A stretch of DNA of 64,000 nucleotides from Escherichia coli. GTDB taxonomy: Bacteria > Pseudomonadota > Gammaproteobacteria > Enterobacterales > Enterobacteriaceae. The position numbers and the translations under genes were made by a program. The stretch lies in the NCBI RefSeq assembly GCF_030384885.1, contig NZ_CP128613.1. One strand, given 5' to 3'. Below the pieces are notes generated by a model. It made no database searches, had not been told where the DNA came from, and saw only the letters and a list, made by a program, of their open reading frames with translations. Positions 2,772 to 6,925 of this stretch are shown here, piece after piece; the first letter of the stretch is position 1, and every line of letters begins with the position of its first letter.

Positions 2772-3707
2772 ATGTCGCAAAATCAAGAAATTAGTAAGAA
2801 AGAACAATACAATCTGAACAAATTACAAAAACGTCTGCGTCGTAACGTGGGCGAAGCCATTGCTGACTTCAATATGATTGAAGAAGGCGATCGCATCATG
2901 GTTTGCCTCTCCGGGGGTAAAGACAGCTATACCATGCTGGAGATTCTGCGCAATTTGCAGCAAAGCGCGCCAATCAATTTTTCGCTGGTGGCTGTTAACC
3001 TCGATCAAAAGCAACCGGGCTTCCCGGAACACGTTCTGCCCGAGTATCTTGAAAAGCTGGGCATTGAGTACAAGATTGTGGAAGAGAACACTTACGGTAT
3101 CGTGAAAGAGAAGATTCCGGAGGGCAAAACCACTTGCTCACTGTGTTCTCGTCTTCGTCGCGGAATTCTTTACCGTACCGCAACGGAACTGGGAGCGACG
3201 AAGATCGCGCTGGGTCACCATCGTGACGATATCCTGCAAACGTTGTTCTTAAATATGTTCTACGGCGGCAAGATGAAAGGTATGCCTCCGAAACTGATGA
3301 GCGATGATGGCAAACATATTGTGATTCGTCCGCTGGCCTACTGCCGCGAGAAAGATATTCAGCGCTTTGCCGATGCAAAAGCGTTCCCGATTATTCCGTG
3401 CAACCTGTGCGGTTCACAACCTAACCTGCAACGTCAGGTGATTGCTGACATGTTGCGTGACTGGGATAAACGTTATCCGGGGCGTATCGAGACGATGTTC
3501 AGCGCGATGCAGAATGTGGTGCCGTCGCATCTGTGCGATACCAACCTGTTCGATTTCAAAGGCATTACCCACGGTTCTGAAGTGGTTAACGGGGGTGATC
3601 TGGCGTTTGATCGCGAAGAGATCCCTCTACAACCGGCGGGTTGGCAGCCTGAAGAAGATGAAAATCAGTTGGATGAGTTACGACTGAATGTGGTTGAAGT
3701 GAAATAA
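2772..3707 (+). CDS. ttcA: tRNA 2-thiocytidine(32) synthetase TtcA, intact
   Basis: 311-aa ORF with the PP-loop SGGKDS and CxxC pairs. It is full length. In K-12 the Rac prophage attB lies at the end of this gene. Confidence 0.93.
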
Positions 3708-3708
3708 C

Positions 3709-3787
3709 CCGGATAGCGCCCGATGCGCAAGCTTATCGGGCTACTCTTATGGAGGCCGGATAAGACGCGGCCAGCGTCGCATCCGGC
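3709..3787. repeat. REP/BIME palindromic units between ttcA and dbpA
   Basis: GGCCGGATAAGACGCGGCCAGCGTCGCATCCGGC (3754-3787), plus an upstream REP-like hairpin GCCCGATGCGCAAGCTTATCGGGC. Confidence 0.7.
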
Positions 3788-3835
3788 AATCCCGAAGAAG
3801 ATGTTTACTCTTGCACCCTGCGATTCAACATTTCA

Positions 3836-5209
3836 TTATTTTAATAACCGCACCCGGCACGTTTTTCCTTTAATCTTCCCGCCCTGTAACTGTTTCCATG
3901 CTTTATGAGCAACAGCCTGACGCACCGCAACATAGACATGCGCCGGATGCACGGCGATTTTGCCAATATCTGCGCCATCAAGCCCGATATCTCCTGTCAG
4001 CGCACCTAATACATCACCCGGGCGCATTTTGGCTTTTTTCCCGCCATCGATACATAACGTTGCCATTTCTGCTTCCAGCGGCACAATGGAACTATTAACT
4101 GGCGGCGTTTGCCAGTTAAGTTTTATCTGCAACATGTCAGAAATGATATTGGCCCGCTGTGCTTCTTCCGGGGCACAGAAACTGATCGCCAGACCGCTAT
4201 TTCCTGCACGCGCTGTACGCCCGATGCGATGTACATGAACTTCAGGGTCCCACGCCAGTTCAAAGTTCACTACCAGCTCAAGCGATTTAATATCAAGACC
4301 ACGCGCAGCAACATCCGTCGCAACCAGCACACGAGCGCTACCGTTAGCAAAACGTACCAGGGTCTGATCGCGGTCACGTTGCTCCAGATCGCCATGTAAC
4401 GACAATGCACTTTGCCCTATGTCATTCAGCGCGTCGCAGACAGCCTGACAATCTTTTTTGGTATTGCAAAACACCACGCAAGAGGATGGCTGATGCAAAC
4501 TTAATAACCGTTGCAACAGCGGAATTTTGCCTTTGCTGGATGTCTCATAAAATTGTTGTTCAATGGGAGGCAGAGCATCTGTTGAGTCAATTTCAATCGC
4601 CAATGGATCGCGTTGCACTCGTCCGCTGATTGCGGTGATGGCTTCCGGCCAGGTTGCCGAAAACAGAAGCGTCTGTCGAGATGCTGGCGCAAAACGGATA
4701 ACATCATCAATGGCATCGCTAAATCCCATATCCAGCATGCGATCGGCTTCATCCATCACCAGCATATTCAACGCATCCAGTGATACCGTGCCTTTTTGCA
4801 GATGGTCCAGCAAACGACCCGGGGTTGCCACGATAATATGCGGCGCATGTTGCAACGAATCACGCTGCATACCGAACGGTTGACCACCGCACAAAGTCAA
4901 AATTTTGGTATTTGGCAGAAAACGCGCCAGCCGACGCAATTCACCTGCCACCTGATCCGCCAGTTCACGCGTAGGGCACAGCACTAAAGCCTGGGTCTGA
5001 AATAGCGACGCATCAATTTTCTGTAGCAGCCCGAGGCCAAAAGCCGCCGTTTTGCCGCTGCCGGTTTTCGCCTGCACGCGAACATCTTTTCCGGCAAGGA
5101 TCGCCGGAAGCGCGGCGGCCTGCACCGGCGTCATAGTTAAATAACCCAACTCATTAAGGTTCGTGAGTTGGGCGGGAGGCAAAACATTCAGGGTAGAAAA
5201 AGCGGTCAC
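3836..5209 (-). CDS. dbpA: ATP-dependent RNA helicase DbpA (DEAD-box)
   Basis: 457-aa ORF. Q-motif, Walker A (GSGKT), DEAD (VMDEAD), SAT and HRIGRT motifs are present. Confidence 0.95.
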   Translation of the reverse strand: MTAFSTLNVLPPAQLTNLNELGYLTMTPVQAAALPAILAGKDVRVQAKTGSGKTAAFGLGLLQKIDASLFQTQALVLCPTRELADQVAGELRRLARFLPNTKILTLCGGQPFGMQRDSLQHAPHIIVATPGRLLDHLQKGTVSLDALNMLVMDEADRMLDMGFSDAIDDVIRFAPASRQTLLFSATWPEAITAISGRVQRDPLAIEIDSTDALPPIEQQFYETSSKGKIPLLQRLLSLHQPSSCVVFCNTKKDCQAVCDALNDIGQSALSLHGDLEQRDRDQTLVRFANGSARVLVATDVAARGLDIKSLELVVNFELAWDPEVHVHRIGRTARAGNSGLAISFCAPEEAQRANIISDMLQIKLNWQTPPVNSSIVPLEAEMATLCIDGGKKAKMRPGDVLGALTGDIGLDGADIGKIAVHPAHVYVAVRQAVAHKAWKQLQGGKIKGKTCRVRLLK

Positions 5210-5239
5210 AATCTGTTCTCGTGGTCATCGACGCAAAAA

Positions 5240-5413
5240 TTAGCAAGCGCGTATCCTCGCAGATCTACGCTCACGATGCGACAATTTAATCGGTTCTTCA
5301 TCGGGTGGTGGGTCAGGCATGGGTTGCGGGCGAGGGATTGGATCGGGCACTGGAACAGGATCGCCAGGAATCGGTTCAGGGACAGGAATTTGCAAATAAA
5401 TGAGTGTCGTCAT
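5240..5413 (-). CDS. candidate 57-aa proline-rich small ORF in the dbpA leader (MTTLIYLQIPVPEPIPGDPVPVPDPIPRPQPMPDPPPDEEPIKLSHRERRSARIRAC)
   Basis: ATG with a GGAGGG SD 4 nt upstream, read on the - strand. The uninterrupted frame ends 30 nt upstream of the dbpA start. It is below the ORF-track length cutoff. There is no homology support. Confidence 0.3.
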   Translation of the reverse strand: MTTLIYLQIPVPEPIPGDPVPVPDPIPRPQPMPDPPPDEEPIKLSHRERRSARIRAC

Positions 5414-5470
5414 ATTTCCCTCCGGTCATTGGGTGGACTCTTAAAGGGTAGACGCTGATATATAACAGGC

Positions 5471-5592
5471 AAAAAAAAGCCGACTCATCAAAGTCGGCGT
5501 CGTACGAATCAATTGTGCTATGCAGTAATTCAAAAAAGGAAGTAAGACAATATGGAGCGCAACGCCCATCGCTTGACGTTGCATTCACCTGC
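5471..5592 (-). ncRNA. fnrS: FnrS small RNA, FNR-activated and Hfq-dependent
   Basis: The reverse complement reads GCAGGTGAATGCAACGTCAAGCGATGGGCGTTGCGCTCCATATTGTCTTACTTCC...GCCGACTTTGATGAGTCGGCTTTTTTTT. This matches my memory of FnrS in the zntB-dbpA intergenic region, with a terminator hairpin and U-run. Confidence 0.85.
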
Positions 5593-5627
5593 AAGAGAGA
5601 TATTGCCCTGAATGGGTAGAGAGTTTA

Positions 5628-5641
5628 TTGACTTCGCTCAA
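5628..5641. promoter_or_regulatory. FNR box TTGAC-N4-CTCAA, centred ~42 bp upstream of the FnrS 5' end (class II position)
   Basis: TTGACTTCGCTCAA, compared with the consensus TTGAT-N4-ATCAA. The spacing to the inferred fnrS start at 5592 fits an FNR-dependent class II promoter. Confidence 0.6.
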
Positions 5642-5687
5642 ACTTTGCGGCGTTTTTGTATACAGATAGTAGGGAAAATTGCTGTTG

Positions 5688-6692
<1,005 letters not shown>

Positions 6693-6925
6693 TTATTTTG
6701 TAGTCTAGCCTTCTGGCCCTGTTACGCAACATCTCATCACCCCATTACCCTGAAATGATTAATAAAATTCTGTCTAAATTGAATACAAAAAGCAAAATGC
6801 TTTTCCATATACAAACCGTGTGAAGTGTTAAATAGCGTCTATCATTATCAGAATTATCTGATCATATGACGTGGCTTTATTGCGATCGGATAGCAACAAA
6901 AATTGATAAAAATAACGGGATCTCA

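Follow-up and report, generated by a model that had tools for sequence, protein, structure and literature searches.

The small-protein gene ynaL and an invariant leader element upstream of the RNA helicase gene dbpA in Escherichia coli and other Enterobacteriaceae

The gene for the ATP-dependent RNA helicase DbpA of Escherichia coli is preceded by a short, proline-rich open reading frame (ORF), analyzed here in a stretch of 64,000 nucleotides from contig NZ_CP128613.1 (the window, to which all positions refer). The coding sequence lies at 5240..5413 on the minus strand and consists of 57 codons followed by TAA, with a translation that is exactly MTTLIYLQIPVPEPIPGDPVPVPDPIPRPQPMPDPPPDEEPIKLSHRERRSARIRAC. 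A Shine-Dalgarno (SD) sequence, GGAGGG (5418..5423, minus strand), is separated from the ATG by the four nucleotides AAAT. The downstream cistron on the same strand is dbpA (3836..5209), which starts with GTG, 30 nt (5210-5239) beyond the TAA. The upstream neighbour is the small RNA (sRNA) FnrS (5475..5592, minus strand; Rfam RF01796, 134.8 bits), and its intrinsic terminator, a stem at 5479-5498 with the T-run that follows (minus strand), bounds the unit formed by the ORF and dbpA. The sequence confirms the ORF and its SD spacing, as well as the placement between fnrS and dbpA, as given in a first-pass annotation of this DNA, and the same gene order is present in all 80 species loci considered below. 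The predicted product contains 16 proline, 8 aspartate or glutamate and 7 lysine or arginine residues, with twelve overlapping PxP positions.

The ORF had been regarded as unannotated, which does not hold: it is ynaL, a translated and already catalogued gene of 57 codons. A 551-nt query around it found a match in 5392 of 5426 complete E. coli genomes, one copy in each, where RefSeq carries the label 'ynaL: proline-rich small protein YnaL'; WP_001296046.1 is annotated at this position in K-12 and in a strain identical to the window. The product matches Pfam PF23677 ('Protein YnaL-like') with 136.9 bits against a cut-off of 27, residues 1-57 aligning with profile positions 1-57, and is the same 57-amino-acid sequence as that printed for YnaL in 2018 (VanOrsdel et al., 2018, Proteomics, PMC6001520). 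In that study, YnaL was one of 13 previously unidentified positives from a ribosome-profiling screen with tetracycline-arrested ribosomes, and a chromosomal sequential peptide affinity (SPA) tag at the 3' end of the small ORF between fnrS and dbpA of MG1655 resulted in an immunoblot band. The earlier suggestion that the ORF could encode a small protein is thereby borne out, as the identical tagged product was detected and the core of the protein is under purifying selection at the amino-acid level (see below). The authors also remarked that the gene lies next to dbpA and that the two might form an operon (PMC6001520). As the gene is already known, the ORF itself is not novel. Our literature search on function, transcription start sites, Rho and elongation factor P (EF-P) for ynaL and dbpA found only this study to name YnaL, and no published partner, phenotype or localization of the protein.

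The K-12 protein is identical and sits in the same position between fnrS and dbpA, and is thus the same gene. Compared to K-12, the strain of the window has one extra T in the ynaL-dbpA spacer, which measures 29 nt in K-12, and a synonymous change of GCC to GCT at codon 56; the sequence after ynaL (5210-5242, minus strand) reads TAATTTTTGCG here and TAACTTTGCG in K-12. Identity to the window of at least 99% over the 551-nt region is found in only 15 of the 5392 genomes.

Conservation was assessed in the 80 closest loci fetched with DbpA, one per species, all of them from Enterobacteriaceae (Escherichia, Salmonella, Citrobacter, Enterobacter, Leclercia, Lelliottia, Klebsiella, Raoultella, Kosakonia, Pseudescherichia and others). 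All 80 carry ynaL with a GGAG-type SD (GGAG or GGGAG) and an ATG, on the same strand and directly upstream of dbpA. Protein searches returned 164 proteins with the single sequence and 220 with a profile. Among the best 120 of each, which were inspected, every match carries PF23677, and those named by organism all belong to the Enterobacteriaceae, with the exception of one endosymbiont.

Substitution patterns, obtained from Nei-Gojobori counts over 77 distinct sequences as the proportions of synonymous (pS) and nonsynonymous (pN) differences together with dN/dS, differ strongly along the gene. The N-terminus (codons 1-15; 5369..5413, minus strand) is variable, mostly hydrophobic and contains indels, with a pS of 0.705, a pN of 0.496 and a dN/dS of 0.39 over alignment columns 3-19 (E. 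coli codons 2-15). The proline-rich acidic core PGDPVPVPDPIPRPQPMPDPPPDEE (codons 16-40; 5294..5368, minus strand) has a pS of 0.616, a pN of 0.096 and a dN/dS of 0.08; for reference, the values for dbpA codons 11-160 are 0.617, 0.044 and 0.035. Since all four proline codons are in use at the invariant proline columns and dN/dS is 0.08, the core is selected as an amino-acid sequence. The first-pass annotation had proposed looking for a conserved frame with synonymous drift, and this is what is observed: the frame is kept, and the low dN/dS of the core is accompanied by saturated synonymous sites. Downstream of the core the pattern changes. Codons 41-46 (PIKLSH) have a pS of 0.047 and a pN of 0.051, and codons 50-57 (RSARIRAC) a pS of 0.010 and a pN of 0.058, so near zero in pS that dN/dS is not meaningful for either segment. 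Peptide-level selection covers residues 16-40, perhaps up to residue 45, or about 30 residues. Two separate constraints are overlaid on ynaL, a peptide core and a 3' third that is invariant as nucleotides.

Within Salmonella and E. coli, most indels among the YnaL variants (P0053, P0135, P0103, P0001, P0112, P0106, P0110, P0058 and P0065) keep the frame. They include in-frame duplications or deletions of 5-15 residues in the PxP tract, some of them in widespread Salmonella lineages. Rarer variants carry frameshifts at the CCN run, and others diverge completely after codon 40-42.

The second constraint is seen in a stretch of about 50 nt (5243-5293, minus strand) that overlaps the 3' end of ynaL. 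From codon 41 onward the codons are fixed, as CCG ATT AAA (T/A)TG TCG CAT, nine variable nucleotides, and AGA TCT GCG AGG ATA CGC GCC, the last part including the rare codons AGA, AGG and ATA. In the species alignments the 5' half of this element, CCGATTAAATTGTCGCAT (codons 41-46; 5276..5293, minus strand), is near-invariant, with the above pS of 0.047 compared to a neutral value of 0.62, and the 3' half, AGATCTGCGAGGATACGCGC(C/T)TGC (codons 50-57; 5243..5266, minus strand), is invariant at the nucleotide level. The variable nonamer between the halves (5267..5275, minus strand) is the site of independent premature stops: in 13 of the 80 species, TAG or TAA codons of several kinds and at several positions cut off the tail of YnaL, leaving the 3' half untranslated yet retained. 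The element is likewise retained in Klebsiella and Raoultella, where ynaL reads five codons beyond it; in the K. oxytoca group, ynaL extends into dbpA. The element is present as a single copy per E. coli genome, which rules out a repeated element or a regulon site. A scan of metagenomes for the element gave 120 loci, with the YnaL core upstream in 115. Of the remaining five, three are truncated by the end of their contig, one (L201) has a core shortened in frame, and one (L173) lacks ynaL altogether.

The last of these contigs has the order zntB, FnrS, terminator, CGCTACCCT, 14 nt, CCGATTAATTTGTCGCAT...AGATCTGCGAGGATACGCGCC, dbpA, with the SD, the ATG and the proline core of ynaL all missing. 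Its DbpA shares 96% identity with the protein of Kluyvera ascorbata. The same ynaL-less leader is found in K. ascorbata itself (L204, GCA_043674505.1, 1380-1500) and in a related contig (L205), with the 3' half of the element intact; the 5' half is partly retained in Kluyvera. Kluyvera-type genomes keep FnrS and a GTG-initiated dbpA, and in L205 the linkage of FnrS to dbpA is kept although zntB is not adjacent. Judged from these sequences, the Kluyvera leader is a natural deletion of ynaL. In all other Enterobacteriaceae examined, the first reading frame encountered from the FnrS terminator towards dbpA is ynaL. Because the element is kept where ynaL stops before it, runs past it or is missing, it is a feature of the dbpA 5' leader that is independent of the ynaL frame, and at the C-terminus of YnaL it is the nucleic acid, rather than the protein, that is conserved. 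The double constraint on ynaL, the invariant leader element and the ynaL-less leader of Kluyvera may not have been described before.

Part of the element may be structured. In a candidate mRNA hairpin (5243..5274, minus strand), an AG/AC internal loop separates an outer stem of 8 bp from the inner stem AUCU:GGAU, which is capped by a GNRA loop, with GCGA as the loop sequence (5257-5260, minus strand) and GAGA in its place in Kosakonia and Pseudescherichia. The variable nonamer provides the 5' strand of the outer stem and pairs with the invariant ACGCGCC. The hairpin recurs in single-sequence folds, and in pair counting 75.5% of cells are paired, compared to 49% or less in slid controls. The outer stem shows some two-sided change, yet it is imperfect in many species, with many cells unpaired; the inner stem never varies, and RNAalifold consensus support for structure in the leader was weak. 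Taken together, this modelling makes the hairpin plausible. A long-range helix, GUCGC:GUGAC, was suggested by RNAalifold and dropped, as its ensemble probability was about 0.01.

The element did not resemble known RNA families or targets. Rfam 15 gave no match for the leader (5150-5480, both strands), even at E-values up to 10, and FnrS was the sole Rfam family in the vicinity. We considered mimicry of the DbpA target in 23S rRNA (helix 92 region), and rejected it, as the best local score was 20 against a shuffle mean of 19.6 (standard deviation 2.3) and the best leader-23S match lies at 23S positions 1732-1769, not near 2550; complementarity of the leader to 23S rRNA was also no better than that of shuffles. 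Pairing with FnrS was not above shuffles (p about 0.09 for the element, and worse for the full leader). No sigma-70 consensus promoter was found within the element on either strand at the scan threshold, and at that threshold ynaL contains neither a sigma-70 promoter for dbpA nor an antisense promoter. Since structure alone cannot account for 40 invariant nucleotides, our best guess is that the element has a sequence-specific protein or RNA partner.

Upstream of ynaL, a candidate promoter for ynaL and dbpA (5445..5472, minus strand) could consist of TTGCCT (5467-5472) and TACCCT (5445-5450), separated by a 16-nt spacer. The TTGCCT sits inside the T-tract of the FnrS terminator. Across 77 species TTGC(C) and CTAC(C/G)CT are conserved, and the sequence of the 16-nt spacer varies. 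A sigma-70 consensus scan of window 5100-5750 scored nothing, so such a promoter would be weak or non-consensus, and we regard the conserved TTGC...CTAC(C/G)CT as a candidate for a weak ynaL-dbpA promoter. Interpreting CTACCCT as a sigma-S -10 was considered and not retained; DbpA has been reported to be higher in exponential phase. Look-alikes of sigma-54, sigma-E, Cra and CsrA sites, judged by eye only, were weak or wrongly spaced. Between ynaL and dbpA, the species alignments and the scan gave no conserved promoter or terminator; a hairpin with T-run after ynaL is peculiar to the TTTTT spacer of this strain and was rejected as a conserved intrinsic terminator. The lack of a conserved promoter or terminator separating ynaL from dbpA, together with the conserved -10-like motif ahead of ynaL, suggests that the two genes may be co-transcribed.

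The spacer and initiation region of dbpA (5207..5239, minus strand) contain a weak SD within CGAGA (5217-5221) and the GTG start codon (5207-5209). CGAGA and GTGACCGCTTTT are conserved, whereas the spacing between ynaL and dbpA varies from 14 to 63 nt. The GTG start and the minimal SD are kept in all species examined, and the start codon is predicted to be mostly paired in a small local hairpin (mean P(unpaired) 0.24).

The sequence DPPPD (codons 34-38; 5300..5314, minus strand) is the strongest predicted EF-P-dependent site in YnaL, and contains the three consecutive prolines that, like a strong XPPX, define a polyproline motif. D34, P35, P36, P37 and D38 show little or no variation within the family. 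PDPPPDEEPIK is fixed and the distance from PPP to the element is constant, with indels on both sides; those in the PxP tract directly before it are in frame and span 5-11 residues. Of the 28 residues between P14 and P41, 20 are D, E or P. Without EF-P, ribosomes stall at PPP, to an extent modulated by its context (PMC4176338). As PDPPPD is invariant and PPP stalls ribosomes without EF-P, EF-P-dependent translation of ynaL, already proposed in the first-pass annotation, can reasonably be inferred; ynaL does not occur in the searched portion of an efp/efpL pause table. Nascent chains rich in D, E or P destabilize translating ribosomes, and MgtL regulates mgtA in this way (bioRxiv 10.1101/2021.02.02.429294). 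AlphaFold predicts YnaL to be an extended chain with no secondary structure, with a confident extended segment at residues 21-40.

We tentatively favor the reading, at a probability of about 35%, that ynaL is a cis-acting, hard-to-translate leader ORF that tunes dbpA, with DPPPD and a D/E/P-rich, MgtL-like composition as its active part. The peptidyl-transferase region of 23S rRNA is where DbpA acts. In the proposed mechanism, the YnaL peptide would act mainly during its own synthesis. PDPPPDEEP would join a polyproline stall site that requires EF-P with a ribosome-destabilizing composition like that of the EPDP of MgtL. Because this segment would both stall and destabilize, the share of ribosomes that pass ynaL would be set by the performance of the peptidyl transferase and of the ribosome (EF-P, Mg2+, integrity of the subunits). 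Ribosomes that do pass would enter the invariant element or halt next to it, 14-63 nt ahead of the weak and partly paired GUG of dbpA, and might in this way tune the synthesis of DbpA, a helper in assembling the peptidyl-transferase region of the 50S subunit. Kluyvera would have lost this input from translation, with the leader element alone remaining. Taken further, ynaL and the element could form a translation-quality sensor, in which passage through the acidic PxP...DPPPDEEP tract, among the most difficult peptide sequences known for a ribosome, sets DbpA output; we consider this extended version doubtful. It would include the element of about 50 nt as a new cis-regulatory RNA, or as a site in the dbpA leader that binds a protein or an sRNA, which is equally speculative.

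Several features of the locus are in line with ynaL as a leader ORF, a role that the first-pass annotation had put forward as possible. It is always on the same strand and directly upstream of dbpA, in the 80 genomes and in 115 of 120 metagenome loci, and its 3' end overlaps the invariant element. The weak initiation signals of dbpA (GUG, SD within CGAGA, paired start codon) are conserved. Peptide selection is limited to about 30 residues, with a free N-terminus and a tail that is dispensable in 13 of 80 species. DbpA and EF-P have both been reported to be higher in exponential phase.

Comparisons with known systems are also instructive. Like YnaL, MgtL is encoded by a short ORF in the 5' leader of the downstream gene (Gall, 2016) and is a D/E/P-rich peptide (MEPDPTPLP... 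compared to ...PDPIPRPQPMPDPPPDEEP). Its proline codons and EPDP 'intrinsic ribosome destabilisation' motif sense Mg2+, proline and EF-P status and control transcription into mgtA. In contrast to YnaL, in which the motif lies 15-41 residues in, MgtL has only 17 amino acids, with the motif at the extreme N-terminus, where the tunnel is still empty and destabilization is therefore effective. MgtL further depends on defined alternative stem-loops and Rho, whereas modelling of the ynaL leader identified no such stem-loops. Conservation of the peptide sequence, on the other hand, is much stronger for YnaL than for MgtL. Of the properties of leader ORFs of the MgtL or TnaC type, a hard-to-translate sensor sequence is present in ynaL as PPP and the D/E/P-rich composition, but thermodynamic predictions and species alignments gave no ribosome-position-dependent structure, terminator or masked start. 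With EF-P-dependent proteins of the CadC type, YnaL shares a PPP run with D on both flanks, invariant across genera; PPP in CadC sets the copy number of its own protein, whereas the proposed target of ynaL is the downstream cistron. Similar to TnaC, SecM, SpeFL and ToiL, conservation in YnaL covers about one exit-tunnel length near the 3' end of a short upstream ORF, and ToiL offers a precedent for an upstream ORF that senses translation stress (PMC12121999). Arrest peptides, however, need a strict register to the arrest site, whereas YnaL tolerates in-frame indels in the PxP tract.

A number of observations weigh against a leader function of ynaL. Our literature search found no experiment that ties ynaL to dbpA expression. 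Expression of dbpA does not need ynaL, because Kluyvera keeps dbpA, its GTG and the element. The gap of 14-63 nt between stop and start, and the overlap of the genes in the K. oxytoca group, make precise termination-reinitiation coupling unlikely. Leader modelling revealed no switch between alternative structures: in thermodynamic predictions for sets of 77 and 27 species, accessibility of the dbpA start did not change with a modelled ribosome at PPP (mean +0.001), at the stop (+0.024) or at codons 41-47, and a switch that sequesters the dbpA start site was rejected on these grounds. Established Salmonella lineages tolerate in-frame changes in the length of the PxP tract, which is unlike a strictly registered arrest peptide. 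The D/E/P motif lies 33-41 residues into the chain, and occupancy of the tunnel has been reported to suppress destabilization (bioRxiv 10.1101/2021.02.02.429294). Finally, tagged YnaL accumulates (PMC6001520), which fits a trans-acting protein equally well.

A protein that acts in trans and a leader ORF that acts in cis are about equally likely. On the former account, which is possible though short of an even chance, YnaL would be an extended acidic polyproline-II rod that binds a partner, e.g. DbpA, a pre-50S particle or a chaperone; it would simply be co-transcribed with dbpA, and its overlap with the element would be a by-product of a compact locus. SPA-tagged YnaL is found in exponential or stationary phase cells, and operon partners often share a function, as the authors of the study suggested (PMC6001520). 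Selection is also strong at positions other than proline (D18, D24, R28, D34, D38 and the hydrophobic x positions), a rod or repeat would be expected to tolerate the in-frame length variation seen in the PxP tract, ynaL was lost in Kluyvera with dbpA intact, and residues 21-40 form the confident extended segment of the AlphaFold model. Against a function in trans, the literature search gave no partner, phenotype or localization, both termini of YnaL are poorly constrained as peptide, and DPPPD, although invariant, is costly to translate and usually avoided unless needed. Nor did YnaL show a fold or a match to a functional domain, the only hits being weak, low-complexity ones to TonB: NCBIfam NF008084 (20.8 bits, E-value 2.9e-4, against a cut-off of 315) and Pfam TonB_N (PF16031; E-value 0.68, 11 bits against a cut-off of 33), both rejected. 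With the TonB spacer, oncocin and apidaecin, YnaL does share PxP repeats, which would be predicted to adopt a rigid polyproline-II rod, and a PRP motif. Proline-rich antimicrobial peptides are strongly cationic, whereas the YnaL core is acidic and the protein has no membrane anchor or export signal.

Other explanations of the conserved frame are less probable than either a leader ORF or a trans-acting protein. Translation of ynaL might matter without regard to the peptide, if ribosomes shield a C-rich leader from Rho or open the leader hairpin. The mRNA of the core is C-rich and G-poor (C:G about 2.3) and thus similar to a Rho utilization (rut) site, dbpA has no obvious promoter of its own, and the leader of deaD, the gene for another DEAD-box helicase, offers a precedent for Rho-dependent control (PMC7430678). 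We nevertheless consider this improbable, as the 25 codons of the core combine saturated synonymous sites with a dN/dS of 0.08, which means that the amino-acid sequence itself is selected, and the third positions of the proline codons are mostly G in other genera, which argues against selection for a G-poor RNA; the supplementary files searched held no 3' ends or Rho data for the ynaL-dbpA locus. The frozen synonymous sites at the 3' end could in principle reflect a second frame, entered by a programmed +1 frameshift at the proline run. In the window, no stop interrupts the +1 frame between PPP and a TGA overlapping the GTG of dbpA, which gives an ORF at 5206-5301 (minus strand; 31 amino acids, starting at an ATG inside GAT GAA), the same end point is found in 24 of 77 species, and the rare E. 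coli variants P0106 and P0110 are frameshifted at the PPP run. Across species, however, this frame ends at 16 different positions, in three cases inside the element, which largely refutes dual coding; moreover, the spacer indels do not come in multiples of three, the free variation of the proline codons leaves no conserved slippery sequence, and Kluyvera keeps the element without an ORF over it, so that we give this explanation very little credence. Only its small size speaks for a chance open frame in a non-coding dbpA leader, which we reject as next to impossible in view of the detected protein, the Pfam family PF23677, the presence in 80 of 80 species and the dN/dS of 0.08 in the core.

If true, a sensor formed by ynaL and the element would constitute feedback from the catalytic performance of the ribosome to ribosome assembly, and would link EF-P and ribosome integrity to assembly of the 50S subunit. 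If the idea of a leader sensor fails, YnaL would be a candidate partner protein of the polyproline-rod type. The comparative data narrow the question for either case, as only residues 16-45 would count as the selected peptide and the tail is kept as nucleic acid.

The surroundings of the locus contain several further features, and the neighbouring genes mark it as E. coli. FnrS is flanked on its other side by zntB (5688-6671), with dgcM further along. A second small gene in a leader position within the window is an ORF of 15 codons at 6685-6732 (minus strand), annotated by RefSeq as 'protein YnaN', which ends 13 nt before the GTG of zntB. On the opposite side, dbpA neighbours ttcA (2772-3707, plus strand), and the intergenic region between the two genes (approximately 3740-3810) contains a GC-rich palindromic sequence, GCCGGATGCGACGCTGGCCGCGTCTTATCCGGCC, which resembles a repetitive extragenic palindromic (REP) element.

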